64,000 bases of DNA from Phoronis australis (lineage: Eukaryota; Animalia; Phoronida): the NCBI GenBank assembly GCA_002633005.1, contig NMRA01000166.1, positions 634,381 to 698,380 of the forward strand. The letters are read 5' to 3'. The translations under genes were made by a program, and so were the position numbers. Below the pieces are notes generated by a model. The model was not told the origin of the DNA, did no database searches, and worked only from the letters and a program-made list of their open reading frames with translations. Position 1 is the first letter of the stretch, and every line of letters begins with the position of its first letter. Below, one piece after another: positions 17,367-63,172 of this stretch.

Positions 17367-17517
17367 GTGCGTGAATCTTGCACACTTTAATTTTAAAACA
17401 TTTATCTACTGTTCCTCTCTTACAAATTTTAAATGTAATCTTTGTATTTTCTTGTAGCAACCGCTCTCGAGAGCTTTCAAAACTCCCAGTTTAAGACTAT
17501 TTAATTTTTTTTTTCAG

Positions 17518-23710: not shown

Positions 23711-24341
23711 ATATGATGCTACTTGCCATCATGGAGATCTTATAGTTGCTTTAAAGTGCGCGTGTGTAGAAGACAGCCAGTCAATCTGAGCGCCTCCTCT
23801 ATGATATTTCTAATTTGTTTGAGACTTGTCTCGTGGGTCACTTTCAGTAAATGGTGAAAAAAGGTCATGAAGACACGGTCCCATCAAATTGTGCATTTGG
23901 TAGGCGAGGGCCAAATCTAGAGATTGTGATTTGAATTAAATATCCTATGTGTTGTTTATTAATATAAAAGCAAATCGTATTGTCAGTGTCATAAGCAGAC
24001 ATGATTATTTTAAAACTACATTTTGCAAAGGATTATGTACGTATTATTAAATGATTTACAAAATACTAGTGTTCATGAGTTCTTCTTTCCTTAGATGTCA
24101 CAGAGCTTGCTTGCTCTGAATTTGGTCAGGTCGCTACAATAAGTCAATAGCTCGGTCTTGACATACAAGTGAACAAGTGTCATAGTTCCTTTCACACACG
24201 CCTTGCGAGTAAAGCGGGGAGCCTAAAACATAAGGTTTGTTATTTTATAGCCCATTTTCACATCGGGCACTGATACCTCAATCTCACGTCATTAATTATT
24301 CGCTCAAAAGAGTGACTTGATTTTATCCCTATACCTTGAAA

Positions 24342-25439
24342 ATGGTAGGCTTAGTCTTGCTACCTCCTATGGTTACACTAATCTCATCTTCAGCACCAAG
24401 CCTGAATCTCCATTGCATAATTCCGTCAGGTCCCCAATGGTCAACACTGACAGACTCACACCAGTCTGTCCCAAACGGTACCGAAATCGTTTACAAATGC
24501 AACGAAAGCTACAACGTTGAGTTAGGTGATAGTGCATCAAGTAAACAACGTACGAACAGGAATGCCAGTCGTCAATATCTAACCTGCGTGCAGAGCAACG
24601 GCACAGCACTGATGAAACCGTCCACTCTAAAAGAGTGCATACAAAGGAATTCATCTCTGCTCGACTGTAGTGTCCCTCCAAACCCACCTCGATCTCAGTT
24701 GAGCAATAGAACTCACGCCATCGAGCAAGGAAGGGCTATTAACAACCAAAGTCGTTTACATTACCAATGCAACCCAGGAACCCACGTGGGCTCGGGTGTG
24801 ACAACATTTTCAATAATGTGCTTAGTACTGAACAACCAGACTTCGTGGATTCCGGCGAATCATAGCGGATGCGTCGCTATGGAAACAAAACATAGGCGCG
24901 TTACCCAGTGTAACATTGATTATGCTGGATTTGTTGAAAGTCCCCCTTCAATTGATACACTGTTTATTACGTTGGCTATTAACATTATATTGGCTGCTAC
25001 ACTGGCAGCTTTGTCTTACATAATAACCGATGTAAAACCTCCACCGGCGGTCAAATCTTCTCTTGGAAAACCTAAAAAGGAGTTTCCCCTTCAATCCAAA
25101 AAACCGATAGTTGTCTGGCGTCCTAGTATTAACAACAAACTTCTCGGGGATCTTCGACAGTCTCCAACACATGGTCACATCAGTAAGGAATCGGATCTTT
25201 CACTGGGGCCAGAGCAAAGCATACCGCACAATCCCACGAATGTCGCTAAGCTAACTGAAAAACAAGCATACAATATTGAAGAAATTTTTAAAAGAAGGCT
25301 CTCAAACCTGAATGATATTCATGATTTAGAAGGCGGGAACGTTGGCCTGGAAAGGCCTCTTCTGAACCCCGTGCCAGAAGATGGAGACAGCTTCCTTTGC
25401 TCCAAACGCCACGCGAGGCCGGAATACTTTGGAAAATAA
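24342..25439 (+). CDS. Intronless type I membrane glycoprotein with two sushi/CCP-like domains
   Basis: 365 aa from the first ATG; hydrophobic N-terminus; two 4-Cys modules (C..P..P...GT.I.Y.C..Y...LTC...C and C..PP.P...L.Y.C.PG...I.C...W...C); TM segment TLFITLAINIILAATLAALSYII; long polar tail; many N-x-S/T sequons. Confidence 0.8.
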   Translation: MVGLVLLPPMVTLISSSAPSLNLHCIIPSGPQWSTLTDSHQSVPNGTEIVYKCNESYNVELGDSASSKQRTNRNASRQYLTCVQSNGTALMKPSTLKECIQRNSSLLDCSVPPNPPRSQLSNRTHAIEQGRAINNQSRLHYQCNPGTHVGSGVTTFSIMCLVLNNQTSWIPANHSGCVAMETKHRRVTQCNIDYAGFVESPPSIDTLFITLAINIILAATLAALSYIITDVKPPPAVKSSLGKPKKEFPLQSKKPIVVWRPSINNKLLGDLRQSPTHGHISKESDLSLGPEQSIPHNPTNVAKLTEKQAYNIEEIFKRRLSNLNDIHDLEGGNVGLERPLLNPVPEDGDSFLCSKRHARPEYFGK

Positions 25440-30929: not shown

Positions 30930-32140
30930 CACAAAGTGTTGGTGGTAGTGGTGTATACGAGTCATCTGAGTCATCTGAGTGAACGACCAACATCACTGCA
31001 CAAGGAACATCATCATAACCACTCCGTCCCCCGAAGAAGTACATCCCGAAGTGTGTATATGCTGACAATTCCAATCAGTGGCTGATTCACTTGCCTTCTG
31101 TTTCTTCCACAAAGTCTTGATTTTCTGCAAGCAGCCCATCCAACTCCTAGCTCACGAAGGCGTTCCAAATGATGATGTTCCGATTCCTTTTTGTCTTTCT
31201 TCAGCTTCTCCCGGACCATATTCACAATTTCCGGTTGATCAGGACACAGCTTCCCTTCTGGTTTTGCTTTCCCAGCCAGCTCATCAGCATGTTCATTGCA
31301 CCTGACTCCAGCATGGCCTGGGGTAAATATCCAGGTGATCTTTTTCAAAGTCGACTTTCTTATGAGCTCAGTCCATTCAGCTCTCAAATGTCCACTTTCA
31401 ATTTTCTCCGGAGTACTTTGTGAATCTGTAACAAAGATCACAGGTGCCTGCCGAGTTGTTGTGACCCACTCGAAAGCCTGTGTAATTGCTTCTATCTCCA
31501 TTATCATGCTGAAAGTTCTCATATTGTAAGCTCCTTGCTGTTCCTGCACTAGTGTGCCATTTACAATGGCTAAGAAACCCCATCCAGATTGTTCTCCTCT
31601 TTTAACAGATCCATCCGTGTAAACAACTACATCTCCATGCGAAGAGTTGTGTTCAATAAGTTGTTTTATTTAAGCATCTGTCGCCCCCTGCGCCCACTCT
31701 CTACATTCTCTACTCAACGTGATCACCACCTTTCCAAAATCTGCCTGCTGTTTCTCATTCGTCTGAATCCACTCTTCTGCCCGCGGTATAGTTTCCAGTG
31801 CACATACATCTTTGATGGGGTCTTCTGCCTGAGCCATACAAGAAGCTCCTCGTTTCAGGCGGTTGCCCTTGGTTGTTCCGATGAATGCATGAAGTGAATG
31901 TTGCTTATCAGCTGCTACTTTTAAGTATGCTCTGACCTGAGCCACTTTGTGCCTGTTTTCCAATGACATAAGGCCCAAAACATATCTCATACAGAAAACA
32001 GGTGCATCTTTGGTGCAGCCAAGTATGATGCGCAATGCCTGATTTTGATTTCTCTCCAACTTGTAAACTTGGGTTTTTGTCAGGGTCAATACCCGTGGTG
32101 GATACGAGGAACAGATAAATTCAAGGGTGTGTGGTAACAC
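30930..32140 (-). mobile_element. 5'-truncated non-LTR retrotransposon with RNase H (I/Ingi/Nimb-type architecture)
   Basis: ORFs 32140-31670 and 31549-31013 share a frame, separated by one TAA; post-RT KLERNQNQALRIILG, then RNase H motifs YTDGS, E, TDSQ, PGHAG..NEHAD; short repetitive 3' tail. Confidence 0.88.
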
Positions 32141-33469
32141 TGAAAAATCAAGTCGCCTCCAATATTATAGACATCGGTCCATTCCAAAAACAATGACAAA
32201 TCAATTAGTAAATTTTAATTCAAAGACTGTTCCAAGAAAGTAAGAAAGTAATCTTAAGTTTTTGACTTAAGTTTTGTCTTAAGTTTGTCTAACTCATCGG
32301 ATATGGAAATTTCAAAGTTTGGAGGTTGATAAAAATCTTAGACTTACTGGTAAGTCAAAAACGAACTTTAGCTCCCATGTTGTTGATAGCAGTTCGTCAA
32401 TCATTCGCTCGGTGGAGCCACAGGTCACGCAAAGTATTATGGACAATATTTTGGAGCTTTGTAGGAATGTTGTTTTTAGCAGACGACGAGTTACTGAATG
32501 AGTTGAAGTTATTAGACATAACCAGGGCCCGGTCTCTAATTTCCGTTCTCTGACTCCACTCAGACTCAGACTCACACTTTATAATCAATTCGAGTTCAGT
32601 CTCAGCTTTGATGTATTCAATGTCATACTCTAAAAATCTGTACTCGAAATTTCGAGCACCTATTCACTTTTCGAGTACTCTTGAATTGAAGTATATCTCA
32701 TTTATATTTCGAGTACGATTTTGGCTAAAAATTCCGGGTATATGCTCCAAATTTCAAGTTTCCTTTGACAGTGTGCTTGAAATCGTACTCGAAAATAACT
32801 ACGAGCGAGAAAAGAAAATATCGAAAGACGTAGCAAAGCTTTGGAAAAAATAAGTCCTTATACCATATTTCAGCGCTTCAGTTTCAGTCCTGAGATAACA
32901 GTTTTCATTTTAAATCTTCTTCATCTTATTAAACCCGCCGTATCCCCACAATTCATTGCCGCCAATTTATAAACTCCTTCTTACTGTACGATTCCTGGCA
33001 ATAGGTGCATTCTAATCCGTTGTCGGCGAGTCATTACAAGTGTCAAAAGCAGCTGTGCCTGTGGGGAAAGCCGTGTAGGAAGTTTGTGCTGCCGTGATTG
33101 CAGTAGGTACCCCAACGGTTTGTAGGGTTTCCCAAAGACGAGGAGGCGAGAAAAGTTAAAAAAACATTTTGCTTCCCTTCCAGAAACATTTCAAATCATA
33201 GTTTAGTCCTCGATAATTCCTCAATCCCCGAATGGTATTCCAGATTTTGTTTGCCGATTTCTAAGTTGACGTCTCGTCCAGTTCACTGATGAAAAATGGA
33301 TGCCTGTATGTCAGAAGAAATATTGATTAAGTAATTAGTAAGACTAGACCAAAATTAAGTTGCATATGTACTATGTCTTTTAAATCATGGGGTCAAACCT
33401 GTTGACACGTACTTTAACGTCAAAATCTATTTTAGATGGTGTTTACAACTTTGGTTCTGGGGTCAAAGC

Positions 33470-36600: not shown

Positions 36601-37009
36601 TACAGCTTAGTATATCTTTGTAGAGTGGTTGGATAGAGTTTGGAAAGGTCTAGCAAGTGCTTGAATTAGTGAAAAATTCCATAACATTGTAAGACGCTAC
36701 ACATAGGCTACCAGGCACGGGTTAGGGACATCCGGTTGACGTAGAGTTAAGTAAAAATTGAAAATACAGCGGCAGTTGAAGTTGCAGTTGATTCAAAGTT
36801 ACAAAATCAAAAGTTATAGCGATAATTAGTAAAAGATAGGTGTAGAGACAGTGGCTTATGTAACCAACGAGTGTAACTAGAAAGATTATTGTCACGGCGT
36901 GACAATAACGGAATCTGCGCGTGCGTATTACTGGAATTGTTATGGAAAGCAACCCATTTACCAATATAAAAAGGAATTCTTTAAAATTGTAGGAGACATT
37001 ACACATTAA

Positions 37010-38170
37010 TTTGTCGATGACCTTTCCACTTATTGACCTCTTCCGGTGCGTTATGAGCCCCGATGAGGGAGTAATTGTTAACTCGATTAAAAGTGTGGTT
37101 AATGCTAAAAATCACAGATGTTGTACTTTAAGCACTTCAGAATACAAGATGAATGAATTGGTCAAACTTTCAGAAGAAATATACACCTAATGACCCCTTG
37201 GGTGCACCAACTGACCTGAAAATTTAAAATTCAAACTCAATCGCAGTTAGTAAACAGATATGTAATTTTGAAGTCTCTATCTCAAAATTTTCGTTTGCAC
37301 TCAATGACCTTTGACCTATTTTTCTGATTGGTTAGGCCTATTGCGAAGTAAAGTAGGGTATTCAATTGCCGTGTTGACTTACACCAGTGTGCTGAAATTT
37401 AAAAGAATTCCTTGAAAAACGTAAGAGATATAACATTTTGAACGTTACATGATCTTTGCACTAATTGACCCTATCCGGTGCATTATAAGCGTCTTTAAGA
37501 GAATTATTGCAAAGCCCATGGAAAATGTGTTTAACACTGAGAATCACAGTTGTCTGACGGTTGACATCAGTATACTTGCTGATTGAAAAATTCAAATTTT
37601 CAGAAGAAAAATGCACTTAATGACCCCATGTTTGCACTAAATGACCTGAAACTTTGGATTCCGAATTGAATTACATTTGGCAATCAGACCTGTCAATTTG
37701 AAATGTCTAGCTCAAAATTTTAGTTTGCACCTAATGACCTTTGACCTATTTCACCTGATTGGATGACCCGATTACTTAGAAAAGTAATTTTTTAAATTGT
37801 CATGTTGACTTATACCTGTGCACCGAATTTAAAAAGATAGCTTTAAAACTGAAGGAGGAGTAGCATTTTGAAAATTATATGACCTTTGCACCAATCGACC
37901 TCTTTCGGTGCAATATGGAATATGATTATATAACTAATCAAAATTTGTATACTGTCAAAAGTCATATGCTGAATTTAAAGACCGTACCTGCACCCAATTT
38001 GGAGTTATTAAGCCTCAAGGTTGGTCGGAAGAAAAATAAGAATAAGAAGAAGAATAAAATTGAAGAAAACCCAGGAACAACAGTACTCTGCGCTTACACG
38101 CGCAGAGTAATAAAATTGAAGAAAACCCAGTAACAACAGTACTCTGCGCTTACCCGCGCTGAGTAACAAT
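37010..38170. mobile_element. Non-autonomous element with ~430-bp internal tandem duplication and duplicated terminal hairpin
   Basis: ~37020-37450 repeated at ~37450-37880 (both contain AATGACCTTTGACCTATTT); hairpin TACTCTGCGC-TTACAC-GCGCAGAGTA at 38084-38109, duplicated to ~38168. Confidence 0.6.
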
Positions 38171-38510
38171 TGCTGCATGTGACCTATGAGTTCATTGCAG
38201 GGCTTCTAAGCACTGGTTGGAGCATAGAACAGACATTATGCCGGACGTATTGTTTGAGTAGACTTGTGTACGAACGGTGACAAATGCTTTCACGAACAAG
38301 AATCGACAGTTGCCAAAACGTTTAAAATAGCAATAGCCATGGGCATATGTTGCACATAGGATTAAACTAAATTTATGTGATTGCAAAAGATTGTCATTGT
38401 TTTGCTTATTCACCATTCCGTAACTATTAGTTTGTTTGTATGTCTTTTTCACTGGGATTAGGTTTCTCAACGTTAAAAAAAGTTTGCACCACAAGCATTT
38501 CACTCACTTT

Positions 38511-38516
38511 TTTATT
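38511..38516 (-). terminator. Candidate polyadenylation signal AATAAA of the EF-hand precursor gene
   Basis: AATAAA on the minus strand ~45 nt after the stop at 38560. Confidence 0.55.
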
Positions 38517-38559: not shown

Positions 38560-38758
38560 TTATTTTTTGTAGGCATTTTTTCCAACAAAATCTAGAAGCT
38601 CAGCCACTTCGTAGACAACTTCGTTAGCGTCGAATTCTAACTTGAAATTTTTGACGGCCTGTGTAAGGACTTGATCGACCTTTTTCAATTCCTTGATATC
38701 CAAAACGTAATCCATATTCCCGTCGAGCCAATGGATAATATACCAGACAGTGCCAGAT
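38560..38758 (-). CDS. Secreted repeat-propeptide/EF-hand protein, terminal coding exon 5
   Basis: ctctcttttgcag acceptor in phase 2; SGTVWYIIHWLDGNMDYVLDIKELKK...LEFDANEVVYEVAELLDFVGKNAYKK*; EF-like loop DGNMDYVLDIKE. Confidence 0.7.
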
Positions 38759-39213
38759 CTGCAAAAGAGAGTGCCCAAACTTTTAAAGACATTGGATAGT
38801 ACTACTCTATAAAATGGAGGAGACGTTTTTATTGCGTCCGTGGAATCTGAAGCACGTTGTTCCCAAGCCTATAAATTATGAAGTTGGCTGTATCAGCCTG
38901 AAAACCGTGTAAAGGACTCGGAATATCAACCCATGAGAAGGTAAATATTATTGGGGGCTGGAGGGGACACAGACCAATTCGTCTTCGCCAACATTTTGCC
39001 CCAACCCCCCTCCCCCTTCCTAATGCCACTACCTTTGCTACCCCCTTAATCCATTCGCCGAATGTTGCCAGTTTTGTTCAGATCCCCCACGCCCGTCACA
39101 GCTGGACGCCAACACAGGGAGGCAGCCATCAGAGCTTGGGTAACCATGTTTCAACAAAGTTTCAGAGAGAGTAGGAGTGAGACAAAGGGCCAGCGCAGAC
39201 AGATGGCAGGGAG

Positions 39214-39260
39214 CATACATACACACATACATACATACATACATACATACATACATACAC

Positions 39261-39293
<33 letters not shown>

Positions 39294-39320
39294 CATCCAT
39301 CCATCCGTACATACATATAT
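39214..39320. repeat. (TACA)n microsatellite
   Basis: Directly visible. Confidence 0.97.
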
Positions 39321-40513
39321 GAACACGTATAGGTCTATACACCCCTTCGTTAACGCAAACTTCATTAAAAACACGAATATCGAAAAGCTTGATATACACT
39401 CCCTCACAGTCTCTGTAAATAATTTGCTATCTTCCGGTGAGCAGGTATACAACAAATTTCCAGTAGACATTGCAAACAAACAAGCTAAAATGGAAGCTAT
39501 ATTTCGAGAGCACAAATGCCTCTTTACATAGTAAAAATGAACATGGTGTAAGCGAAACAGAGAAATAAAAACTGTGACAGCATGGTAGAGTTCAGTAGCT
39601 GTCTCGCTGCTAAAAATCTAACCAAAATCAGGTGCCCTTGTTCAAAACACACGGCAATATATCGAGTAGTCTTTTTTGAAGTAGTTCCTGACGAGGTCCA
39701 AGTGTTATTGAACTCTACCCAGGTAGAAGGGCATACAACTGGAAGCGAATAGAGCCAGAATGCGGGAAATCCCCGGGAGCTCCTCATTCAGCACAGGTTT
39801 TTCATGACTGGTTAACATTGACTGCAAAATCTTTATCCAAAATGTTCCATTTGTGCATAGCAAAAAGCAGTGCTGTATATTGTATCTTTCCATGTTGATA
39901 TAATATATAGACCGGCAGCACAGAGCACTAAGCATAGATGAAAGAGGTACCAACATCTGACCATAGGAGCACTTAGAGTCCACCTCAGTATGTACAGAAA
40001 CTTATTTACGCCCTTGTCTACACTCTGGGTGTGACCCCTGGGTACCTTACAGGGGGGAAATATGAACTAGATGAAATATTCGATGTACCGGCCAAAACTG
40101 TCCTAAAACGAGCAATAGTACAACACTGAACTACGAATGACCCATGGCAGACAAATTGCACTTTAGAAAGGGTCCGCCATAAACCAAAAGGGACCCCCAA
40201 AATTGAGGTAGCTCATACATTTGAGGTACCACAAAAATTCTATTCCATATGATTCAGTACATGCCACTGACCACTAAATGGCCTATGACAGAAAAAATAC
40301 ACTCTAGACTGTACTCACCAGAAACCCCCAAAATCTCAACAAAGGTATGCCACTGAACATTTGGCCTAGATTATATATTCGAGATACCGGTAAAAATAAT
40401 TAAAATGAATGATAGTGTCTCACTGAACACCGAATAACCCATGAAAAACAAACTACAATCTGGAAAGGGTCCGGCAGTTACTGCACATTTACTGTTCGAG
40501 TATAGATACTTAC

Positions 40514-40611
40514 AGATCCCTTGTCTTGTTTAAATATCCGAATTCCTCTGCCATCACGTCCCAGAAAGTAACATTCCCATCCTTATTCAGGTCAGATTGT
40601 TTCAAATACTC
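40514..40611 (-). CDS. Secreted repeat-propeptide/EF-hand protein, coding exon 4
   Basis: cattgtag acceptor, CT|gtaagt donor; EYLKQSDLNKDGNVTFWDVMAEEFGYLNKTRD with EF loop DLNKDGNVTFWD; phases 0/2. Confidence 0.85.
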
Positions 40612-41819
40612 CTACAATGATATGTTTCGAGATTCACAGGTAGGCATCAAATTCAGGTGCACTAATCTGATACAATTGCGCGCTAAGAGCTAAACCAGCA
40701 ATTGCAATGTCAGACGGGCTTTTTCCTACACCAGGCCAGTCCATTTCTGTATTGAATAAGTCACAAATTTTCTCTAGTGTCGAATTCATACTTTGGGGCC
40801 CGAACACTATGAAAGTGGAGAATAAATCGTAAACGTGTGTGTGTGATTGGTAGATTTAATTTTCTTCGGTAGATATATTACCTAAAACCTGTTGATCACT
40901 GCGACTTCCAAAACTTTTGTTTTCTTCAACTTACATGTAAAGAAATCACAAGAAATTTTAAGCAAGAAACGTGTTTTCTCGTAATTTAACTCAAAGATCA
41001 CAACCATGAGTTTTTGCAATCAATGAGGGTGATACAATTATACGCAGTTTGTACAGTCAACCGAATGGCTTTTAAGACGATCTCAAATGTGTGAGTACGC
41101 TGCTTTAAAAATCCGTTGTCGCCAAAGAAACATGCTTTTTATTTAGACTGCATAACGTTATAAAATTAAACTTGTTTCTTACTTAGACGAAAAATGGTGT
41201 CTGAACTTAAAAGAACTAACAGTTTCTTTATCGTTTGAGATCATGCTCGGCGCATGACGTGACCCGACGGGACAAGCCAGCTTGTTGAGCTACCAATAAC
41301 AAAAAGTATGGACTAATGTCACAGTTGGTAGTGATGCTAATCAAAAATTGCATTTAAAGTACATGTAGTCTCTTTTGCATTATCAAGGTTCGCTATAGAA
41401 TCATAAACATGATTTTTCAGAAGTTTCACTTTGTCAAAACAATCTGTGCTCTGGCTACAACATAACAAAAATACCAAAATGAAATTTCATACGTTGAAGC
41501 TCTTAAAGTAGTCACGTGCAAACACATTTTATAACAGAAAAGTTGCACTTGGAAAAAACATTTTCAAAATCTGCTATTTTCGACAAATTCCACAAATTTT
41601 GCTGGCATGGTGATATTTTGTAACACGAGATGATGATAGCCTTCGGAGTAAAATGTATAATTATATTTAGTAGTAAAAACTGCCATGAAAAGACTGTATC
41701 GGTAAATCTCATTAACACATGTACACCGTAGATCTATGTTAGAGCCATCTTTCTGAACACGTGTAACAGTAGCCGTACTTTGTACAAAGGACGCAAAACA
41801 TTCCGTTTTTAACCCTTAC

Positions 41820-41933
41820 CTTAGTTTCATTAACTGCCAACGCATCTGACATGTTTTTCACCAGGTCTGATACAGTAATAAGTCCGTCCTTATTGGAATC
41901 GAGCAATCCAAAGTACGCTCTCACAAGTGATTT
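41820..41933 (-). CDS. Secreted repeat-propeptide/EF-hand protein, coding exon 3
   Basis: ttttcctttcacag acceptor, AAG|gtaagg donor; KSLVRAYFGLLDSNKDGLITVSDLVKNMSDALAVNETK with EF loop DSNKDGLITVSD; phases 0/0. Confidence 0.88.
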
Positions 41934-42259
41934 CTGTGAAAGGAAAATAATGTGATGTTAAGTACATTCCCTCTACACCACGAGATTGCATGGTAGGAAT
42001 TACGTAATCAATTTGGGACGAGCTGGAAAAAGTCCGGAGCTCAGTAAAAAATCGAGATTAAGACAGGCTTAGTAGCACTAGGTATTGTAGTTTTTCTTTT
42101 CGAAGGCTTTTATCTGCAGCACTGCTGTCGTCTTTCAAATCTATTACGGAACGGTGACCTCTGTAACAGCGCCACCTACGCGGTAACCTTTCCTAGCACT
42201 GGGAAAGCGTGTATGTGGAACGCTTGCTGGCTCGTAAACAGATTGACGTACAGACCTAA

Positions 42260-42262
<3 letters not shown>

Positions 42263-42315
<53 letters not shown>
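42263..42315. repeat. (TG)n microsatellite
   Basis: Directly visible. Confidence 0.97.
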
Positions 42316-42316
<1 letters not shown>

Positions 42317-42632
42317 GCGTATGTTTTGCGCGTCCGTGTGCGTGTATCATATTTTGCATTGCTTGACGCAAGACTGGGTGCTATAACTGTTTTTGTATGT
42401 GCGTGCCATTTGGCAAAAATTGGACTTTGAACAACAAGAAAGCTGTGCCTATAAGTTAAAGCATCCTGTCAGAAAAACAGATAATTTAAATGAAGCACAG
42501 CCTTGGAAAACCCTTCAGATTTTAGAATACCACTAAAGGTGCACAAAGACTGGTATAAACATGTGAATGATTTACTCTACAAAACCAAAAGAAATACTTG
42601 AGTGTTTAAAGCACGACCATACACATACTTAC

Positions 42633-42666
42633 CCAAGTTTGACACTTTATGCCACAGTTTGCACTC
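42633..42666 (-). CDS. Secreted repeat-propeptide/EF-hand protein, 34-nt coding exon 2
   Basis: catcatttcag acceptor, TGG|gtaagt donor; (S)SANCGIKCQTW; converts phase 2 to phase 0 as needed to join exons 1 and 3. Confidence 0.75.
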
Positions 42667-43384
42667 CTGAAATGATGCAAATAACTGAATTGTTTATTTT
42701 ATACATGACAGAATCTTTAGAATCCGCAAAAGAAACGCGTCTGAAATACAGAAAGTAGAGCAATGTTGCATTATTTTCCAGGGGGAATGTTGTTTCTACT
42801 AGAATTGAAATTTTTAGCCATATGACTACAACCCTAAACAACTCAGGTTAATCTTTTTTCATCAAATGTCGCAAAATTTTCAGAACAAACACCACCCCCC
42901 GCTGATGAAATGCTTTACTTTTTCTTTCATCTTATATACAGAATCGAATTTTATTCAGATATTTCACAGCACTACTCCGAACTTGTTCGACTTCCAGAGT
43001 GTTTTCTCAAATGCCATTGTCTGAATCTCTCTGAAACCTTTTCCCCAGTACTGCCCAACGAACAATTATTTAGTTATCCTTTACACTGGTTAAGAAGTAA
43101 CTGATCTCACGTCTCATCACTTATTTAATTTACTCCAACATCGACGAAAATTTGATTAGTGGCCACAAAAACTGATTACACCATATAGAATGATGTCCTA
43201 CATTTGACAAATGAATGTTTGTTCAAATACTGATTGTAAAGGAAAGAGATTACAGTGGGTCAACATTACATACAATGACACAGTGAATAATGTTTATGTA
43301 ACTGGAAAAGCTTCTGTCAGAATAAATATTGATTGTGTAATTAGTAGAGTTGGTTCCATTTAAGTTGCCCAAATTTTCTGCATA

Positions 43385-44636
43385 CCGTATTCGCCTTGAT
43401 AAGCACCCATGCCCCTGTAAGCGCCCCCCACGCGTTTTCAGACTTCACTAAAATAAGCGCTCAGCCCCTGAACGTGTACAAGCGAAAAATGCCTTACCTA
43501 CAGTTCTAAAATTCTACAGTAACGTCTTCAATTAATCGACAAAATCCGACAGTCCTGAAAAAATAGTTGTGCGTGGTATACACTTCAAACTTTCGCCGTG
43601 CTTCAAAAACAACGCAAAAGTTTTGCTGATCTTGCGAGTAACGTGTCCCACCATGGTCTGGCCTTTCAGAAAAGACGCAGCATACTTGTCAACGGGGTTG
43701 TATTGTAACTTTTCCGTACAGATGTTCTCCCTCAGCAGTAATCTACATTTCTTTGTACGCGCGAAAACTTCGAATTGAAGACTAATAAAAACTTGACCAG
43801 TGTTAAAAGCACGTGGCCAGGACGCGTGCGCTGCATACACGTATACCCAATGAGATGAATATAGCTATGTATATAGCTCATTGCGTATACCTGTCATTAG
43901 TCGGGAACTATCCATTCATGAAACGTAGCATAGCATCGGCAAGAAATAAATATTGCCACTAATTTCCGAGATTTTCCAGTACCGTAAAAAACGTTTACGT
44001 TATTTTTAAAAAGAATTTTTTGATTAATCATTATTGGTGTTTTTAAAGTCAAAATGACCCACTGATAGTGAAGACTTCCGCACCCTTACACCCCGAAACT
44101 CCCGTTAAATATCTGTTAGACTATCACGCATCTAGTCACCCGGCGACTCAATCAGATTTAATATCGGCCTTACTGAGACAATTCTCGGATGTTTTTAGCA
44201 AGTGAGACCAGCAAGTGTAAAGTAAAATACGTTCTGCTTTACTGCTTGAGTTAATTTTTTTAGTTATAATGCACACCTAGATCGTTACATGTTTACGTTG
44301 GCGAATGGACTTTGATGACACGCACGCGCTCGCTCACTCACACACGCAGACAAACTTAAGGGGGATTTCAGGTAATTTGATAAGTCGAAACTGTATTTAT
44401 ATTCAAGAATTCAACTTGCACTATCGAAAATCGCGAGGCATTGGGATTTCAGCATAATTTTTTGAAAAATGATCGTAATTTAACAACGAAGCTTGATAGC
44501 AATGCACCAAACTTTTGTAGAAAGTCTGTCATAGGTTACAGATATGCCAGAGAGTCTAAATTTTATGAATCCTAGCTTCCGATTTCACCCGTTTCAGAGA
44601 TCGATTTTCAATCGGTTTAGTCCTGGGCGAATACGG
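43385..44636. mobile_element. TA-flanked TIR element (Tc1/mariner-pogo-like ends) carrying a HIRAN-like fragment
   Basis: TA-CCGTATTCGCC...GGCGAATACGG-TA; internal minus ORF 43532-43840 has NPVDKYAA...VGHVTRKIS...FLKHG. Confidence 0.65.
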
Positions 44637-45408
44637 TATGCACTTTTAAAACCATGGGATCAAACTTGTTTACATGTACTTTTGATATCAACATGTATGT
44701 CAGATGTTGTTTACGTCTTTGTTTCTGGATGCACTGTGAAGATTCTAGAATTTTCTGAGATCAGAACGTAAAAGCCAATGATATGATCATGTGATTTTTA
44801 TTAGCCAATCGTTAGGTATGTACATTATAATAATTTGGGCAGAAGTCTGGAAATAGTCAGATGGAATTTGGTAGTTGAAACTGGACTTGCTACAGTGTAG
44901 CGCCTACTGAAGAAATAATACAACAGAGCCATCTCGTGGAAGATTCTAAAGAGGATCTTGACAAGGGCAAGCTAGGGTTAGGGGGGGNCAATTTTGGGTT
45001 GTTTGAAGGCTACTTGAAATCGCAGCCAATTTCTCAGTCGATACCCAGCAATGCACAATTGCAACCGGGGGCCGCCATCTTGAAGAAGATTGCAGCTACA
45101 GCCGAGAAAGTGGCCCTTTTTTATTTTCAACATAATAAGTTAATTTAATGGTTCTCTCTCCACCCACGCACAATAACAAAGTATAGCAACCGTTAACCAA
45201 ACCCACAGTCAAGTTCTGACATACTGTGGTTGTTTAATTGCGCTCTTTTTAAGTCGACAGGTGATTGTCAAAAGCTTGAAAACTGTTAACTGTTCTTGAA
45301 GTCATGGGACGCGCTCGGGAAAAGTCCAACGGCCACTGTCATACTTACCAAACATTAAGTACGAAACTTCATTTACCATGACGTATAAAAGTTGGAATAA
45401 GTACTTAC

Positions 45409-45971
45409 GAGTTCTTTAGTGCAGTCAATATTGTATCCACGGTCTCTTTGGTTTGCATCGTTCCATTGGGTTTACAAGCCTTCCTTTTAACAATTGGCTG
45501 TGCTCTTCTTACCACCGTGGCATTGTCGAGCTGCGCTGCTCTTTTATCCACCGTTTCAGACATGATAGTCGGCATTGCTCTTCTGACCAATGAGGCATTG
45601 GCTAAGTGCGCTTCTCTTTTATCAACCGTTTCAGGCATGATAGACGGGATTGCTCTTCTTACCACCGTGGCATTGTCGAGCTGCGCTGCTCTTTTATTCA
45701 CCGTTTCAGACATGATAGTCGGCATTGCTCTTCTGACCAACGAGGCATTGGCTAAGTGCGCTTCTCTTTTATCCACCGTTTCAGGCATGATAGACGGGAT
45801 TGCTCTTCTTACCACCGTGGCATTGTCGAGCTGCGCTGCTCTTTTATCCACCGTTTCAGACATGATAGTCGGAATTGCTCGTCTGACCAACCAGGGTGGT
45901 GCTCCTCTGTTAAGGGATGCTGTGGAACAGACGGCCAAAACAAAGGGAAAGATGACCAGCAAGACTTTCAT
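45409..45971 (-). CDS. Secreted repeat-propeptide/EF-hand protein, coding exon 1 (signal peptide + dibasic repeat array)
   Basis: MKVLLVIFPFVLAVCSTA signal-like; five 25-aa RR...KR... repeats; the apparent stop TAA lies inside a consensus TC|gtaagt donor at 45408; tttctatccacag acceptor 9 nt upstream of the ATG (exon starts at 45980). Confidence 0.88.
45504..45884 (-). repeat. Coding tandem repeat, 75-nt units in a 150-nt higher-order pattern
   Basis: Near-identical alternating units visible in both DNA and protein. Confidence 0.95.
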
Positions 45972-46184
45972 TTTCGTGACCTGTGGATAGAAATTATGAC
46001 TGTACGTACACGATATTCTAGTCCGGGTGTGAATTACCTGACTAGATACCCTATATATATAAAAATTTATGGTGATTTAATCGGCGACAGTGAAGCATGG
46101 GTAAAACGCGCACAGTTGAACTGAATTAGCAAATTCATCTCTGACAATATTTCAACAGTTGTTCCGAGCGAATGTGTTTTTCTT

Positions 46185-47166
46185 GGATTGTTCTGAAACC
46201 CCCTCGACCCTCACACCCTTTGACCCTCGACCCCCTCTACCCACAACCTCCTCGACCCACGACCCTCTACTCACGACCCACGACCCAAAGCCTCCTCGAC
46301 TCAGTCTAGACACAAGCTCTACTCCATCTGAGCATAGAACACTCAAGCGCTGACTTGTGAGACCAATAATTTGGGCCGTGACCTCGGCTAGCTTTTCCCT
46401 GTTTTTGCAATTAAAGCAGTTGGTTCGGCAAGTTTGAAAGTCAAAAGACATACCAACCTTACAAATGTCGTTCTCGGCAGATTATAATCGTCTCGTTTGC
46501 TCTTCAGTGAATTGTATAGTGCGAGGAAACGACAAAACTGTAATTTCACCAGTAAATACAGTTTGAAAAAACAAAACGTTAACTAAAAAGTTTTCAACGT
46601 GATATGGAGTATATTGTGAAGGAGTACACAAAATAAAGCAAATAATAAAAATCGGAAATTCTGTACATTCAGGTTATTGTACTCGCTCCCTAAGTTTATT
46701 AGAATAGGGCCATTGATAGCCGCTCAAGAAACTATTTCCGTGACAACGATAGCACGCTCACAATGCGCTATTCAAGACCACCTGCGTTCTCACGCCACTT
46801 TCTGTTTTTACTCACCAGCCTCCCGTTCAGTAACGCTAGGACCTCGCTAAAAAACAAGACTTCGCGAGATTACGTGAGATATTGCCGTGTATTTTAAATG
46901 GGAACACGTGACCTTGACTAGACTTTAGCTAGATCCTAGCGTAGGTCCTAGCGTCTACTGAACGCACGCCAGATTTCACTGAGCCAGAGCAGACTCGCGT
47001 GTAGGTATGTTTTATGAGAAAGTCGCGCAGCGACGTAATAAGATCGTGACATATGTAAAAAGCCCACAGATACCTCTATTTCCTCAGGTCGTGGGTCGAG
47101 GGGGTCGTGGGTCGATTGGGTTGTGGGTCGAGAAGTGTGGAGTTCGATGGATTTTCAGAACAATCC
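46185..47166. mobile_element. MITE with TIR GGATTGTTCTGAAA and CGACCC-rich subterminal repeats
   Basis: GGATTGTTCTGAAA at 46185 and TTTCAGAACAATCC ending 47166; mirrored (CTCGACCC)/(GGGTCGAG) arrays. Confidence 0.75.
46820..46972. mobile_element. Small palindromic MITE nested in the 46185-47166 element; sister copy at ~55976-56131
   Basis: TTCAGTAAC.CTAGG.CCT...AGGTCCTAG.GT..CTGAA ends; shared core ACTTCGCG.GATTACGTGA...GTGTATTTTAAA..GAACACGTGA. Confidence 0.7.
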
Positions 47167-49107
47167 GCTTTTGCTTTTGTGTTCAAAACATCGGCGAGGC
47201 CAATTACCCTCGACTTCCTAACTGCTGAACCACATGACCTTCAGGTATCGCGTTACTAGTAAGCTTAGCTCCACTTACTGCAAATCATATTTTTCACAAT
47301 AAAAATTAAACAAGCTCTCTTTGCCAGCACGTACATTTATAGTTCACGTATGATGCCCAACACCTTAGTACTCGAGTGATTGTTACCCCCCACCCACCCC
47401 CCACCCCCATAAAACTGCATGAGGTAGCAGTTACAACTATCAAGTTATCGGGTTTCCAAAGCAAATTCGCACATTTAGAAAAGCGAGGTTTGTATTATTA
47501 TATGCCATCAACTGAACAAGATCATTAACATAATAATTTGTCGGCCAGTTTTTTAATTTTGATATTTTGTATTTTTGTCTTTGTCTAGTACAAATCAAAA
47601 TATGTTGGGGTCACCAAATTCTAATTTGTTGCCCATCGTGTTTCATCAATTATATGAATTGCATCGTTCACACAAACTACGCTCCCCGCTCCACTACAGA
47701 CCTTCGTTGCACCCGTTTTGGCACTGCCTTGGTCCCACGTAGGGTACAGGCCCTCTATTTAGATGCGTGCTGTTCTATATTTTTCTCGCGTGTCGTTTTT
47801 CGCGGACTCGGAGGAAGGGTGGCCAGTTTCGTACTGGCCTTGGTGACGTCAGTCCGTCGACTTAATTTTACTCCCTCCGGCTTCCGTCGCGTACATACTT
47901 CCTCGGGTCTGTCGCCGCCAAAATTAATGATGTCATTAAGGACTAAAATTATCCTTAGTAAACGTACTTATTTACCGATGTTGGAAAAATTGGCATTCTA
48001 CTGTTATTTTGCTGCCAAAATTGTGGTGGGCTCTTTTGGGTCGGCTTTCGGTGCCATTGCGTCACCTGTTTACCCATTTCCCCGATTCTTCAATCAACTG
48101 ATCATCTCTTCCACGAGATTGTGTACATGTCATAACAATCGGAACTGGTTACATTCGTTTCAAGTTTTCAGTATTTTGATACCAGCACATTCGATTTCAG
48201 GACAAATTTTGCTGCTACGAAGCTGTCATCATCTCCCGAGAGATCATTTGCAAACTCTTTAGTATGAGCGGCGTTCGGGTGTCATAAAACGACAACAGAC
48301 TTTTCTTTGCTAGAAAAGGGGAAGAATTACGCAAAGGTGATGTTTATTACATTTTTTCACTACAACGGCTGTAACCGACAAGATGAGTGCTGATTAGTTC
48401 CCAGATTAAGCATGCACCCTCGCAGGTCATTAGATATACAGTGTTGATAGCCACGACGAGCTACCTGGGTTGTGTGAAATTTTGGTGTCTAACGGAGCTC
48501 AACACATAGCTACCTAGCTGTAAACTGACTAAAGCCTTAACTTATACAACTAGCTGGCTTTCTACCTTTGTATATACATTTATGATACAACTTTTGTAAA
48601 TACAGTATGTACTTTGTTTGTAACAGACTATTTTGAAATGCTTCCTTAGTATGCACTTTAAAGAATAACCGATTATCGCACATCATGTTACGACAGGGTC
48701 AAATGTCCTGGAAAAAATCGTACTGCCTGAGGCTGAAAGAACCCGGCCTCAACCGCACATCCTGTCTAAATCTGAAGGAGTTGTGATTGAAGCTTTAAAA
48801 TAAAACGGTCTCTTCAAGAAATGTTCCTGTCTTGCGATAAAAACTAATATTCACTTGGCATTTTCCATATACTACCTAACGTCTAGTATGAATATAAAGA
48901 ATAGACAGTCACCGAACAGCGCCATACTTCTCAAACGCTTGCCAATTTCAGCATCACGATTACGCTACTGCGTTTCAATAGATAACCATTATATCACAAT
49001 ATGTTGTTGGCATTGTGAAATCAGTTTAGTTGATGGGAGATGTCTAAGACGGAAAGTTACTTCTTTCGTAAATTTGAAGTTGCCGTTTGAATTTAAGCCA
49101 CACCTAA

Positions 49108-49790
49108 TCAGGCGCGTAGGAAGGCAAAAATATTTGGAGGGAGGGGCATAAACCCATTAGACTTCGCCAAACTACCCGACCCTTTCCTAACGCCACTACA
49201 TGCTCGCAGATTTTTGACGGGTAACCGAGGGAGCATGGGAGACGTGGAATTCGCTTTAAGGTGCGCTTTTGCTCATTTCAGAAGTACCTGTAATGGTTCA
49301 CGAATTAAACTTGAATTTCAAAATACTGAAATGTTTGTTTATGATTGCAAGTACTTTGAGTACCACCATACGACATGTACACTGTCATCAGAAATCATAG
49401 CCCGGACAATCTTTCGACAGGTGCGAATTTCTTACAAAGATTACTTCTAGTAACGATCTATTCTTGTGATTTTATGGGAAAACGTAACGTTATACAATAA
49501 ATAGTCCTCTTGGGTAATTCACAAACAGTGGTCTTCACGTTCTTCAACATTGTACCTTTTCGATGGCGGTCAATCCTATCGTATTTTCACATTTTTGATT
49601 CTTTGAGTCGAATGTCTTGATACTGCTGTGCTGTGCACGAATGCTTCGTGTTTTTGATGAATTTGGAGCTTCAGCTTCCCCTCGTGAATAATTGATAGTG
49701 ACTGATTTACATGTATAGAGGGACAAATGGACAATTTCCCCGAATCCCCCCCCCCCCAACAATTAAGTGGGACACCTTGAGATGAAAGGT
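49108..49790. repeat. Interspersed repeat with CAGG terminus; related ends at ~9416, ~38935 and ~59786
   Basis: CAGG..CG.AGGAAGG.AAAAA...GG...CA.A..AATT.GACTTCGCC-like start shared; body is an inverted match to 8270-8990. Confidence 0.65.
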
Positions 49791-52538
49791 TATTAAACAT
49801 ATAACTAAATTTGGAAAAGAATGACAGCTCAATCTATCGTCGTTTGACCTTGCAAGAAGTGACCTTCACAAAAAATAGGAAAATAGAGGAAACCGACTCC
49901 ACGGTTGGGCCCTCTCTCCGTGAGCGACCTCTAATAAGAATTTGTCAACCAAAACACTCGTTGATTCAATAGCCTGCTGTGTCTATAGCTGGCTCTCTGT
50001 TGACTCTCGCTGTAACTGCTGATTCTCTTCACTGCAACTCAACCGTCATTCTCTCAACTGTTTAACTGTTAACTGCTTTTACTCCGCCGACTGCTGAACT
50101 GCTTAGAGGAGAATGCCACCCGGTTTAATTAGTCTTTTTTGCCGCCTATATCCACATCGCCTCGCATACGGTCGACCTAACCTTGCCAAGAGGTGTGGCG
50201 TTAACCTGTGAGGAAGGTGAGAAACGACGCTAACGACGTCAGTGGTTCATATTCAGAGTGAATGCCGCTATGTTGCGGTGCATCGTTCCCGCTTGTCCGA
50301 ACTAAGCAGCTGCGAGGAAAGCGGGTATATCGTTTTTTTTTTTAATTCCTCGAGAGTCCAAAATGCTTAGGAAGTGGCTCATGGTAGTGAAGAATGAAAT
50401 GTACGCTGTAAATAGCAAGTATGAGGCTGTGAAACATCTCCGTGTCTGTGGCCTGCAGACGTCGACAGTGCCTGACGAATGTCGGCTTACCAAATAACTC
50501 CATACGTTCCGTTGTCTGAGGTTGTTCACGGCGCCTCTCTAGTATTTCTTCATCACTGTATTCCTGTTCGAATTGATAGCCTGTAAAACTTAACGATCCA
50601 CCTGCAAAGTCGGGACTGATGAGCTCCAGCTCGTCCTAAGTCGGGATTGCGAGTTGCCATGTTGGCGTTTATTATTGAGCGTTCTGTTTCAAAATGAATT
50701 ATCCTCACCCTAACCAATACTTACATAAAACTGAAACAAAGTCTGTCTCATTAGATCCAATTTGCAATGCCTTTGGAGTGTTCGTGGGTGCAAATGATTT
50801 GAGAAGCCAGCAATGAATAAATCACCGCGTTACAGGCTTTAGGTGCAATAAAACTAATTGACGGGACACCGAGGATGTGTGAGTTCATGCTAATTTAGTG
50901 TTTGCTGGCAGAACCTTTTTTTTAATGTTTATTACGAAATCTTCAGAATACAATGAATATACATAACCCAGAAAGCGCCAAGAGCCATTAGATCTGGGTA
51001 AAAAAATACAAAGAAGTCTATATACAATGATTATATACGAATACATAAATAAAAAAACTGATGTTAAGAATACAATGATATATGACAACGAATGAAAATA
51101 ATTCATTTTCATACAGATGTATAAAATTCTATCCACTCACACAAAGAGATTTAATGTTATAAAGAAATTCTGATACTATTTCAAATAAAACCTTATTTTC
51201 GTTTGAGTTAAGTTCTTGACATCCATATAGAAAGAAATTAATTTTGTTGTACAATTGCGGAATTTCAGANTTGTCAATGTACAACTTCTGCCCTGACGGT
51301 GCTGTGGCCAAAGCGAAACCTGAATTCGCGGCCCCCAACGAGTAAGTACATTTGCAGTTTCGTGGCTAATTCACCAACATAATCACGTGCACATTACTTT
51401 GGCTCACTAGTATAGTATTTTCTTGACTGGAAGTTTAGTTTCCACTGAACTTTGGCTGGTTTATGTTCGTGATGTCTCAGTTTCCGAGCCACTGGCCGGG
51501 ATAACGCCGAGTCCAATCCGGCCGGCCGCGACGGGCCTGATCGAGCTCCGAGCCACTGGCCAGGATAACAAGCGTTTTGTGTTTAGAACAAAAAAAATCA
51601 CAAGTCTAAACAACACAGATATAGGTTCTCCTGTCTGTATCTCACGGAAAATACTTCGAAATTATCTCCGTACAGACCCCAAACTCCTGCCACCGGACGT
51701 TTTTGGCCTGCCGAACTTTGTAGGCTACGGTGTGTACAAACACCAATAAATCCGTAAGAGCGAAATAAAACAACACGTTTTTATAAGAACTCGGTGTATT
51801 TTTAAGGGTTTATATAGAAGTTTGATGATTTATTGGTGTTAAACGATGACTTCAAGCGATAAGCTGACACCAGTAACCGGTGTTGTGAACTGCTGAACAA
51901 ACTGCGTGTGAAACGATGACGTCATTGGATAATTTCGACACCTCCGTCTGCCGTCAGGTGTCAGGTAACGCAACCGTACGTGTCGTTATGGAGTAGAACT
52001 ACTCGATCTAAACTGATACAAATTAGGTTGTTTTTTTTTGGGTGGCATGCTCCTTTAACTGCTTTACTGACTTTACTGACCAATACAAAGCCGTGCTTGT
52101 GTACTTATAGACTAATGCAATGTTCTTGAACTCTTCACCAATTCAAGCACATTTTAGAATTTTCTGGAATCTACCCAATTATTTTACAAGCATATACTAG
52201 TCTCTAGAATATTCCAGACTGCATTAATCACTGTCATACTAGAGTCCTCTAGAAAGTTCCACACTATACTGTAGTAAACAAATTGCATCATCACTGTACC
52301 CCTTGAATTGTAAGTTTACGCTTAAAACCAGTCAAAAGTAAGCTTGAATGTCAAGCTATTTCCGGAAAACGGGTAGGGAATGTATACCCACCCGGCTGTA
52401 AAAGCTCGGTAATTTCTAGAAATATTCAACTCATCTCGTACGGCAGTCCAGGTGGCAATTCTTAGAAAAGGGACTTAAGTTGATTTTTGACTAAGTCTAA
52501 GGTTTTCTTCGACTTCCAAACTTTAAAACCTCCTGATA

Positions 52539-55975: not shown

Positions 55976-56131
55976 CTGGGTAGATTTCAGTAACTTTAGG
56001 TCCTCGCAAAAAAGGAGAACTTCGCGGATTACGTGAAATGTTGCTGTGTATTTTAAAAGAGAACACGTGATTTTGGCTAGATTTTTGCGAGGACCTAGCG
56101 TAGGTCCTAGAGTAACTGAAAAATACCCAAG
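55976..56131. mobile_element. Small palindromic MITE (family of 46820-46972)
   Basis: GGGTA..TTTCAGT.ACT.TAGG.CCT / AGGTCCTAGAGTAACTGAAAAATACCC inverted ends. Confidence 0.7.
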
Positions 56132-60124: not shown

Positions 60125-60970
60125 GTAAAGAGATTCGCGACTCCGTGAAGTCTCGCGGCCTAACGCAAAAGTACGTGAGCAGGATTAAAAACTTCCGGTG
60201 TCATGGCTAAGCATAGTAACGAAGGTGAACTTTGGTTTTTATTTCACGCACGTCAAGCAAATTTTTGAATTTGAAATTAATTTGTTGTGTTTAATGCAAA
60301 CTAAATCGCGTTTGCGAGCCATTCAAGTCGGATTATTGGTACGAAACGTGTCGGAATTAACTTGACAAGTTGTTGATCGGCCCGCTTGCTGGCACAGTTC
60401 AACACACGAATCGAGGAGTTTGGCCCAAAGAAAAGGTTGAGCTAAATGGATAATTCTTTTCACCAGTTGAATTCTCAGTCATTTATGATGAAATTTAGTT
60501 TGCATTTTGTGATTTTGTATGAATTTTGGATCGACCTAAATGCAGTTTCTCATTCGTCTACGTTTACAATACATAAGCCATGGTTTAGTACCAATATATC
60601 CAAAATTCAGCAAGAGCGAAATTTTGCCATTTTCATGATCTTCAGAAGCTCATATATATTAGCGTGAAAAGTGGTGGAAAATGAAAAGTATGCCAGCGAA
60701 ATATTTAAACTTTCTTCTTTATATTGATATCCGTTTCAACAAATGGGGGCATTCATGAATATTTTTAAAAATCGAACTACTGCAGCACTTGAGAAGAGGA
60801 TAAATTTTCAGTTGCTAAATGGCCATTACTGAACCGATTTGAATGATATGTATATCCAGGGGCAGATCCAGGATTTTGTGTTAGGAGAACCAGAGAAGAG
60901 TATTAGCTAGGATTTTGTCATTCAGACATTGGCACTCCCGATCTGTCAAATGGAATCTGGGGGAATTTTA
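60125..60970 (+). repeat. Direct repeat copy 1 (copy 2 at ~63173-63901)
   Basis: Near-identical sequence from TAAAGAGATTCGCGACTCCGTGAAG onward; copy 2 lacks ~60792-60910. Confidence 0.9.
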
Positions 60971-61737
60971 NNNNNNNNNNNNNNNNNNNNNNNNNNNNNN
61001 NNNNNNNNNNNNNNNNNNNNNNNNNNNNNNNNNNNNNNNNNNNNNNNNNNNNNNNNNNNNNNNNNNNNNNNNNNNNNNNNNNNNNNNNNNNNNNNNNNNN
61101 NNNNNNNNNNNNNNNNNNNNNNNNNNNNNNNNNNNNNNNNNNNNNNNNNNNNNNNNNNNNNNNNNNNNNNNNNNNNNNNNNNNNNNNNNNNNNNNNNNNN
61201 NNNNNNNNNNNNNNNNNNNNNNNNNNNNNNNNNNNNNNNNNNNNNNNNNNNNNNNNNNNNNNNNNNNNNNNNNNNNNNNNNNNNNNNNNNNNNNNNNNNN
61301 NNNNNNNNNNNNNNNNNNNNNNNNNNNNNNNNNNNNNNNNNNNNNNNNNNNNNNNNNNNNNNNNNNNNNNNNNNNNNNNNNNNNNNNNNNNNNNNNNNNN
61401 NNNNNNNNNNNNNNNNNNNNNNNNNNNNNNNNNNNNNNNNNNNNNNNNNNNNNNNNNNNNNNNNNNNNNNNNNNNNNNNNNNNNNNNNNNNNNNNNNNNN
61501 NNNNNNNNNNNNNNNNNNNNNNNNNNNNNNNNNNNNNNNNNNNNNNNNNNNNNNNNNNNNNNNNNNNNNNNNNNNNNNNNNNNNNNNNNNNNNNNNNNNN
61601 NNNNNNNNNNNNNNNNNNNNNNNNNNNNNNNNNNNNNNNNNNNNNNNNNNNNNNNNNNNNNNNNNNNNNNNNNNNNNNNNNNNNNNNNNNNNNNNNNNNN
61701 NNNNNNNNNNNNNNNNNNNNNNNNNNNNNNNNNNNNN
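60971..61737. other. Assembly gap (N run)
   Basis: Run of N. Confidence 1.
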
Positions 61738-63172
61738 CATTCACGAAACCCATTTTGAATGAGCAGCAAACAGGGTCATGCTGCACTTGTTAGCGCGACA
61801 TTCTTGTTACCCCCTCCATTTGTCAGTCTTTGCAGTATTTCACACCTGCTGTGTACCATTGCATATTTGATTAGCTTTTACTTTGTGGTGGTATTACTGA
61901 GTCATTTTATTTCCACTTGATGAAACAAGTATTTTCGAAATATAGTTTGTCGTCTCTTGGTCAGTTTCTTTACCAATGTTTTGACGATACGAACGGAATG
62001 GAATAAAGATTGTTAACAGCAACAAGTGTCATGTATCGAACCAATTTTGCATAATCGTAGTTATGTTTAGAAGTTGCCTTACAATGTACTTTTGGCCTAT
62101 GATAGTAGTGACAGCAAGTTTTTGACACACAAGTTTTTGACACTCAAGTTTTGCAAATGATATGTCAATGTCAGTTAGCCTTTGGCCCTTCCCCCTGGAA
62201 CAAAGCTGTGTGAATTACAAATATTTATTGTGTAACATTGTTACAAATTCATTCATGATTATGAGCCGATTCGTACGGTACTCAATTTAAACAAACATCA
62301 ATACTAATTGCAACAAAAAATCAGCTGATGCGACTGCGTAAGTGTAAATGATAAACACGGGAAAATCAGCTGAAGACGTTTCTGGCGTTAATAACTCATA
62401 ACATGTCTGAATTATCTTGTGAATGTTTTAAATGACATGACAGAGAACAGTATACGCATTTTATTTTTACAAGTCTTAAACACTCCAAAAAAATCAAGCA
62501 ATTCGACTCATTACTTTACCAAATCTTGAAACGAGGGAACGACCGCTCCATAAAAGCGGAAGTTTTCTATCCTGCGTGTGCAGCGCCCTCTCATCGTTAG
62601 TGCTTATGTCCCGTGGCCCGCGACATGCGCAACGCGCTCTAACGGGAGTTGGCAGTCCCTATCTATAGTCTATGGTCTGACGGCTGCCCATTCCGGGGAA
62701 AATGGTATAAATCATCAGGCTACGTCAAAATTCGTAGAACAACAATTCCTTAGACGGTTTTTTCAGAATGGCAAAAATTAGCTAGTGTTCTCTATTGTTT
62801 GGTGGACGGGTGATGCAAATTTCCCTAAAGTTCACCTTGTATCTAAGTCTGTTAAAGTATCGTTATTTTCTTTAAAGATTAGCTTCTGATTATTGGAGGC
62901 AAGCAAAAGAATACGAGTATCATTTTCTGAACAGTCATTTTATGATGGTGTGCTGGCAGTATCCTGATCATGGCTCTATAGACATAGATGGTGGTACGTA
63001 CCAGATGGATACAGGATACCACACAACACAAGAAATTTTCACATATCTGATAAACTGAACTTATTACTGCTTGAAATGTTACGGTGAAAAGATCTCTCAA
63101 GATCATAGGCCTACGCTCTACATGTACTGGCTATGCTGCTTAGGACGACATTATCTCACTATCTGGGCTGGT

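Follow-up and report, generated by a model that had tools for sequence, protein, structure and literature searches.

What does a locus encode when the stop codon of its open reading frame (ORF) lies inside a splice donor? The question is raised by the minus strand of a 64,000-nucleotide (nt) stretch of the Phoronis australis genome (contig NMRA01000166.1, positions 634,381 to 698,380 of the forward strand; hereafter the window), where an unspliced ORF of 188 amino acids (aa) ends in a TAA found within a GTAAGT donor, as a preliminary description of this DNA had claimed. A naive ORF call would stop at this 188-aa repeat protein and leave the domain encoded behind it unnoticed. Joined by script, five minus-strand exons with GT..AG introns yield 1008 nt and 335 aa without an internal stop. 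The gene model holds up, and the locus is a real, expressed, lineage-specific secreted proprotein gene. With a confidence just short of even, we favor the reading that its product is a secreted and N-glycosylated proprotein: by cutting a tandemly expanded pro-region, convertases would free an EF-hand domain of 172 residues that would weakly bind Ca2+/Mg2+ outside the cell.

Five Exons Share One Reading Frame

The model is composed of the following elements, all on the minus strand.

45409..45980, minus strand: first coding exon, with an acceptor before 45980, the ATG at 45971 and a donor after 45409
45915..45971, minus strand: signal peptide as predicted from hydropathy and the (-3,-1) rule, spanning residues 1 to about 15-19
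45501..45895, minus strand: tandem array, 75-nt unit repeated 5.2 times, in which a 150-nt higher-order period has 97% matches, from repeat analysis
45483..45488, minus strand: last dibasic site, K162-R163, located in the sequence and predicted to release the 172-aa domain upon cleavage
42633..42666, minus strand: exon 2, 34 nt, joining phase 2 to phase 0 and coding for two Cys
41820..41933, minus strand: exon 3, 114 nt, with EF-hand loop 1 from 41900 (Asp12) and two sequons
40514..40611, minus strand: exon 4, 98 nt, with EF-like loop 2 from 40593 (Asp12) and a sequon at loop positions 7-9
38560..38758, minus strand: coding part of exon 5, 199 nt, with EF-like loop 3 from 38724 (Glu12, Tyr6), followed by helices and the stop
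38511..38516, minus strand: AATAAA polyadenylation signal, starting 44 nt past the stop

The exons measure 563, 34, 114, 98, and 199 nt, their end phases are 2, 0, 0, and 2, and the frame stays open to a TAA at 38562-38560. Script joining reproduced exactly the exon coordinates, phases, 1008-nt length and AATAAA of the preliminary description. The donors read GTAAGT, GTAAGT, GTAAGG, and GTAAGT and every acceptor is YAG; the gene span holds 14 GTAAG, four of which are the donors of the model, and the same applies to three of its five GTAAGT. Signal peptide, repeat array and the initial 24 residues of the C-terminal domain are all encoded by the first coding exon.

Transcription was assessed in three raw-read runs and one contig run (X1-X4), picked by species label. 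The reads examined made up about 18-19% of each raw run and were counted at a likeness of at least 90% in bins of 500 nt. Depths are given as first-mate-plus/minus pairs, and a first mate on the plus strand denotes minus-strand RNA in most stranded libraries. All five exon bins are covered in X1 and X2, nearly exclusively in the first-mate-plus orientation, and none in X3 and X4 (summed depth over the five bins: X1 15.97/0, X2 8.77/0.39, X3 0/0, X4 0). The individual depths in X1 and X2 are 6.64/0 and 2.22/0.38 for exon 1 (bin 45517-46017), 1.36/0 and 0.26/0 for exon 2, 3.98/0 and 2.16/0 for exon 3, 2.21/0 and 2.83/0 for exon 4, and 1.78/0 and 1.3/0.01 for exon 5. Intron bins filled with repeats show reads from both strands in all runs. 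The gene is expressed, with strand-specific RNA in two of the four runs, and its expression looks restricted to a tissue or state.

It is improbable that the join is wrong or minor, such that exon 1 gives rise to a peptide-only precursor of 188 aa, by read-through or via the donor after 45349, and exons 2-5 are part of a different transcript. The first ORF is complete and stop-terminated without splicing, and no junction read occurs among the listed joints. Moreover, further donor-like sites are present on the minus strand at 45348 (GTAAGT, behind the exon 1 stop) and at 45512, 45662, and 45812 (GTAAGA, inside the repeats). Use of donor 45348 would yield a peptide-only product, while the three repeat donors are phase 0 and would join exon 3 in frame, shortening the array. 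Against a wrong join, however, the five bins are expressed in identical runs and from one strand, the phases match at all four junctions, and exons 2-5 lack a start and a signal peptide and yet are rich in sequons. In addition, the first AATAAA found past the stop follows exon 5, as expected.

Probable Secretory Character

Hydropathy over 11 residues reaches its maximum of 3.12 at residues 3-13 and never exceeds 1.18 past residue 30; the (-3,-1) rule is satisfied after residues 15, 16, 18, and 19. The whole protein carries 11 N-glycan sequons, which probably mark a secretory glycoprotein. Six fall into the 172-aa domain, where 1.5 are expected (p = 0.00085), and four into exons 2-5 alone (1.0 expected, p = 0.011). 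Exons 2-5 are thus sequon-rich and secretory-looking without a signal peptide of their own, which ties them to the signal peptide of exon 1. The protein ends in AYKK. The secretory character and the missing HDEL-like end noted previously are supported by the single hydrophobic N-terminal stretch, the sequon excess and this terminus.

The Repeat Array and Its Dibasic Sites

Each of the five 25-residue units consists of RR, an 11-mer (for example AIPTIMSETVD), KR and a 10-mer (AAQLDNATVV or EAHLANASLV) with an N-glycan sequon. Twelve KR/RR sites delimit 11 internal peptides, namely five 11-mers, five 10-mers and one 5-mer, and the P4 residue is aliphatic (V, L, or I) at every site. The count of 12 dibasic prohormone sites in the preliminary description is correct, but a recent tandem repeat of 75/150 nt accounts for ten of them, and two lie at or beyond the array ends; because ten arise from one duplicated unit, the 12 are not independent signals. 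Given the 97% matches at 150 nt, the array appears to be young. The further proposal that the peptides are prohormone-like is too strong, as they bear no hormone mark: Gly precedes none of the 12 sites for amidation, and five of the 11 internal peptides contain a sequon. An origin of the repeat unit in the first part of the mature domain was also considered and rejected, the resemblance not being significant (p = 0.11 for protein, 0.07 for DNA).

Two other views of the array have to be weighed. According to the first, which we regard as possible though rather doubtful, the peptides are the amplified active product, and the protein is an animal analog of the fungal KEP or alpha-factor precursors that delivers two types of peptide in several copies each as signals, pheromones or structural glycopeptides, with the EF-hand domain as a co-released carrier or co-factor; co-release of this kind was the view of the preliminary description. 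(Papers are cited here by PMC number.) In fungal KEPs, short repeats lie between dibasic sites and X-Ala dipeptides are trimmed by dipeptidyl aminopeptidases (PMC9769878). Here, too, a signal peptide is followed by regular dibasic-bounded units, and the 10-mers begin with X-Ala, like the dipeptides trimmed in KEPs (PMC9769878). Furthermore, the basic pairs and the sequon are preserved in all five units. The nearest Atlas clusters of exon 1 are small fungal proteins, one with MF-alpha Pfam families, at scores of 0.80-0.86 that provide a lead only. However, nine of the 25 unit positions vary, and the sparing of the four basic positions (P = 0.14) is not a significant retention. There is neither an amidation signal nor a motif common to the 11-mer and 10-mer types. 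A bolder version, to which we give a similarly low probability, holds that the gene is an animal KEP counterpart fused to an orphan EF-hand domain: about ten short peptides and glycopeptides and a low-affinity Ca2+/Mg2+-sensing glycoprotein would form one metal-triggered extracellular system for packaging, setting or signaling, and the gene would found a family not yet in databases.

According to the second view, which is unlikely, the protein is secreted uncut or cut once, and the array serves as a spacer or stalk, basic and glycosylated, within a protein of a matrix or mucus, the dibasic pairs being passengers of duplication. The origin of ten of the 12 sites from one duplicated unit fits this view, one sequon per unit could shield the sites, and a combination of repeat and EF-hand modules would suit matrix proteins, with EF-hand domains recurring in shell proteomes (PMC13425148). 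Against passenger pairs stand the two distinct dibasic sites of each unit and the further two at the array ends, every one with an aliphatic P4 residue, as well as the position of the last site directly ahead of the folded domain.

The EF-Hand Domain

The 172-aa C-terminal part is acidic (pI 5.3), contains three Cys and is free of KR and RR, which says little because it has few Arg. Three EF loops start at residues 211, 244, and 282. We searched the window with a motif that follows the EF-loop consensus (PMC7465447), yet was composed after the loops had been seen: it matches four times in the six frames of the 64 kb, three of these in exons 3, 4, and 5. The three exon loops share one strand and lie in the frames required by the splice phases. 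Block shuffles (n = 200) gave 0.5 matches on average and four at most, and none had at least three on the minus strand of the gene span. The three loops quoted in the preliminary description therefore stand, whereas its degenerate fourth was not found; even a loose pattern gives just three loops.

All three loops read D-x-N-x-D, with D/N at positions 1, 3, and 5 and a hydrophobic residue at position 8. Gly6 is present in two loops and Glu12 in one, with both in none (loops 1 and 2 combine Gly6 with Asp12, loop 3 combines Glu12 with Tyr6), and the pattern of high-affinity Ca2+ binding is hence absent. Asp12 reduces Ca2+ affinity and moves selectivity toward Mg2+ (PMC7465447), and its presence in two loops probably points to weak Ca2+/Mg2+ binding. 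The earlier designation as a Ca2+-binding protein overlooked Asp12 in two of the loops, which suggests that binding would be weak and shared with Mg2+.

With exons scanned singly, exon 3 matches the Pfam profile EF-hand_6 at E = 2.9e-4 and 20.7 bits, under the cut-off of 25. Its best match in the PDB is KChIP2 at E = 1.4e-6, summed over repeats, and SCP follows at E = 2e-4. Exon 4 has weak profile matches only (Dockerin_1, E = 0.041; KChIP2 in the PDB, E = 0.16). Exon 5 alone returned no EF profile in the Pfam scan and just two PDB matches, both with E above 1; its single-sequence model is helical and of low confidence (predicted local distance difference test score 57).

Search for Relatives

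Is this precursor a member of a known family? Homolog searches used queries that were short and covered single exons, and for this reason remote relatives may exist. In a collection of 5.8 billion proteins, no relatives of exon 1 were found among proteins of 330-2000 aa (0 of 239 candidates) or 103-329 aa (0 of 20), nor relatives of exon 5 among proteins of 115-2000 aa (0 of 75). A sole match of exon 5 among 1.84 billion representatives was discarded as a spurious sum over the FN3 repeats of a receptor phosphatase, and its Atlas matches were set aside as unnamed viral clusters with low recognition. None of 282 pattern matches in metagenome contigs was confirmed, exon 1 has no match in the PDB, NCBIfam gave sub-threshold noise only and Rfam no matches, and tblastn and blastn detected no second copy within the 64-kb window. 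Likewise, we found no paper describing the architecture, although supplements of shell, mucus, and venom proteomes could list such a protein. A described family with the same architecture, which would have spoken against the preliminary description, thus emerged from neither the single-exon nor the literature searches. An animal rather than fungal origin is indicated by the long introns and by neighbors such as a sushi-domain ORF, SAP18 and an MFS transporter.

Comparison With Known Precursors

Repeat-type neuropeptide precursors have a signal peptide and many KR/RR-bounded copies of a peptide. Unlike these, the present precursor offers an amidation Gly at none of its 12 sites, has a sequon in half of its peptides and carries a C-terminal domain of 172 aa. 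CREC proteins (calumenin, reticulocalbin, Cab45) belong to the secretory pathway and have six or seven EF-hands and an HDEL-like C-terminus, in contrast to the three loops, the AYKK end and the dibasic array found here.

Nucleobindin provides a precedent for the overall design, as a single precursor there unites a signal peptide with dibasic sites and EF-hands (PMC9004410, PMC10308643), and a convertase releases the EF-hand fragment nesfatin-3 from nucleobindin-2 (PMC10308643). The inferred spliced model resembles nucleobindin-1/2 in having these three elements and a predicted C-terminal EF-hand fragment. Nucleobindin, however, is widely conserved and has three long products, two EF-hands and a leucine zipper, whereas here tandem peptides of 10-11 residues accompany three loops. 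A simple pattern test detected no heptad run of four Leu in residues 164-335, and no single-exon search matched NUCB1/2. The preliminary description, which did not recognize the architecture, had missed this nucleobindin/nesfatin precedent and likewise that of the dibasic repeat arrays of fungal KEPs, although the repeat array is not known from nucleobindin.

The front half is like a KEP or alpha-factor precursor in its signal peptide, its repeated dibasic-flanked peptides, their X-Ala starts and a weak Atlas resemblance. It is unlike a KEP in that the gene is from an animal and has introns, an EF-hand domain follows the array and sequence homology is absent. Secreted EF-hand proteins are also known from shell matrices and glands (PMC13425148, PMC6337334, PMC11359391, PMC7460313), and lophotrochozoan extracellular EF-hand proteins show fast sequence turnover (PMC13425148, PMC6337334, PMC11359391). 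A dibasic repeat array is not described for these proteins in the available parts of the papers, a comparison by description only. Judged from its sequence, the precursor is a member of neither the nucleobindin nor the KEP family; it is predicted to work like nucleobindin, with a front half like a KEP. Two known designs are combined in a manner that we did not find described.

Proposed Processing of the Precursor

In the reading we favor, signal peptidase and glycosylation would act on the precursor in the endoplasmic reticulum, and convertases would cleave the array at paired basic residues in the late secretory pathway. The freed EF-hand domain would then bind Ca2+/Mg2+ weakly in an extracellular secretion. 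This EF-hand glycoprotein would be the main product, made by a restricted tissue or state, e.g., a gland or epithelium. In this view, the 11 internal peptides may mainly be spacer or packaging pieces, born from duplication of a pro-segment with two sites.

Several points weigh against this reading. Copy-number expansion is typical where the precursor peptides are the active product. KEPs are an example of such expansion (PMC9769878). Only exon 3 matches an EF-hand profile, and it does so below the cut-off; moreover, binding may suffer from the sequon that loop 2 contains and from Tyr6 in loop 3. Read depth is low, at about 1-23 read-equivalents per 500-nt bin, and a small number of stranded reads (0.66/0 in X1, 0.5/0 in X2) also fall into bin 41008-41508, where no exon is predicted. 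Two near-empty intron bins contain microsatellites that were skipped in read mapping. Lastly, none of the 15 listed joints is a junction of this gene (90 further joints exist). Of the RNA check of the four junctions suggested earlier, stranded RNA over all five exon bins is thus in place, but a junction is not among the listed joints, and since no junction read was seen, we infer the splicing.

If the precursor is processed as predicted, it would represent a secreted calcium-binding protein that is gaining a multi-peptide arm by recent tandem duplication, and hence would offer a direct look at the origin of polyprotein precursors. It would also add to the secretome an orphan extracellular EF-hand domain whose loops suit surroundings high in Ca2+/Mg2+. 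As it stands, it is a single lineage-specific secreted gene, and animals often produce genes of this kind.

Alternative Exons and Surroundings

Two further features may belong to the gene.

38759..38806, minus strand: candidate 48-nt lengthening of exon 5, in frame, if a second acceptor seen in the sequence is used; it would contribute 16 residues, a fourth Cys among them
47279..47341, minus strand: possible promoter and non-coding first exon, with TATAAAT at 47341 and a GTAAGT donor after 47279

The exon 5 acceptor is ambiguous, as the in-frame alternative 48 nt upstream at 38806 is equally rich in pyrimidines. Stranded reads in the bin of 47279-47341 are not attributable to the candidate first exon because the bin also contains a repeat. 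A scan of intron 1 for a strong alternative first exon gave only weak candidates. At 41183-41289 (minus strand) lies an open, unproven candidate exon of 107 nt that changes phase as exon 4 does and has no EF-like content; it falls in the bin 41008-41508 with its few stranded reads.

The neighboring genes have no functional link to the EF-hand precursor gene. On the plus strand, 3235-3520 is the last exon of SAP18 (Pfam E = 1.2e-19; PDB E = 3.5e-31). It is followed at about 10400-20200 by a multi-exon MFS transporter gene, which we take to be SLC22-like and one exon of which matches Sugar_tr/MFS_1. An unbroken 372-aa ORF at 24321-25439 (plus strand) begins with a hydrophobic stretch, contains a sushi domain (E = 9e-4) and a likely membrane helix, and has a long tail. 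On the minus strand, 31013-32164 is the remnant of a broken retroelement and contains an RNase H domain (E = 6e-13). Interspersed repeats at 46814-46972, 37000-38200, and 49500-52000 show deep RNA from both strands with many differing loose ends; the first is a 160-nt element that resembles a short dispersed repeat occurring in numerous transcripts, with a second copy near 55986-56120. An assembly gap of 770 N lies at about 60970-61740, and the sequence at 60126-60792 recurs at 63173-63840 with 95% identity, possibly as an allelic duplication across the gap.

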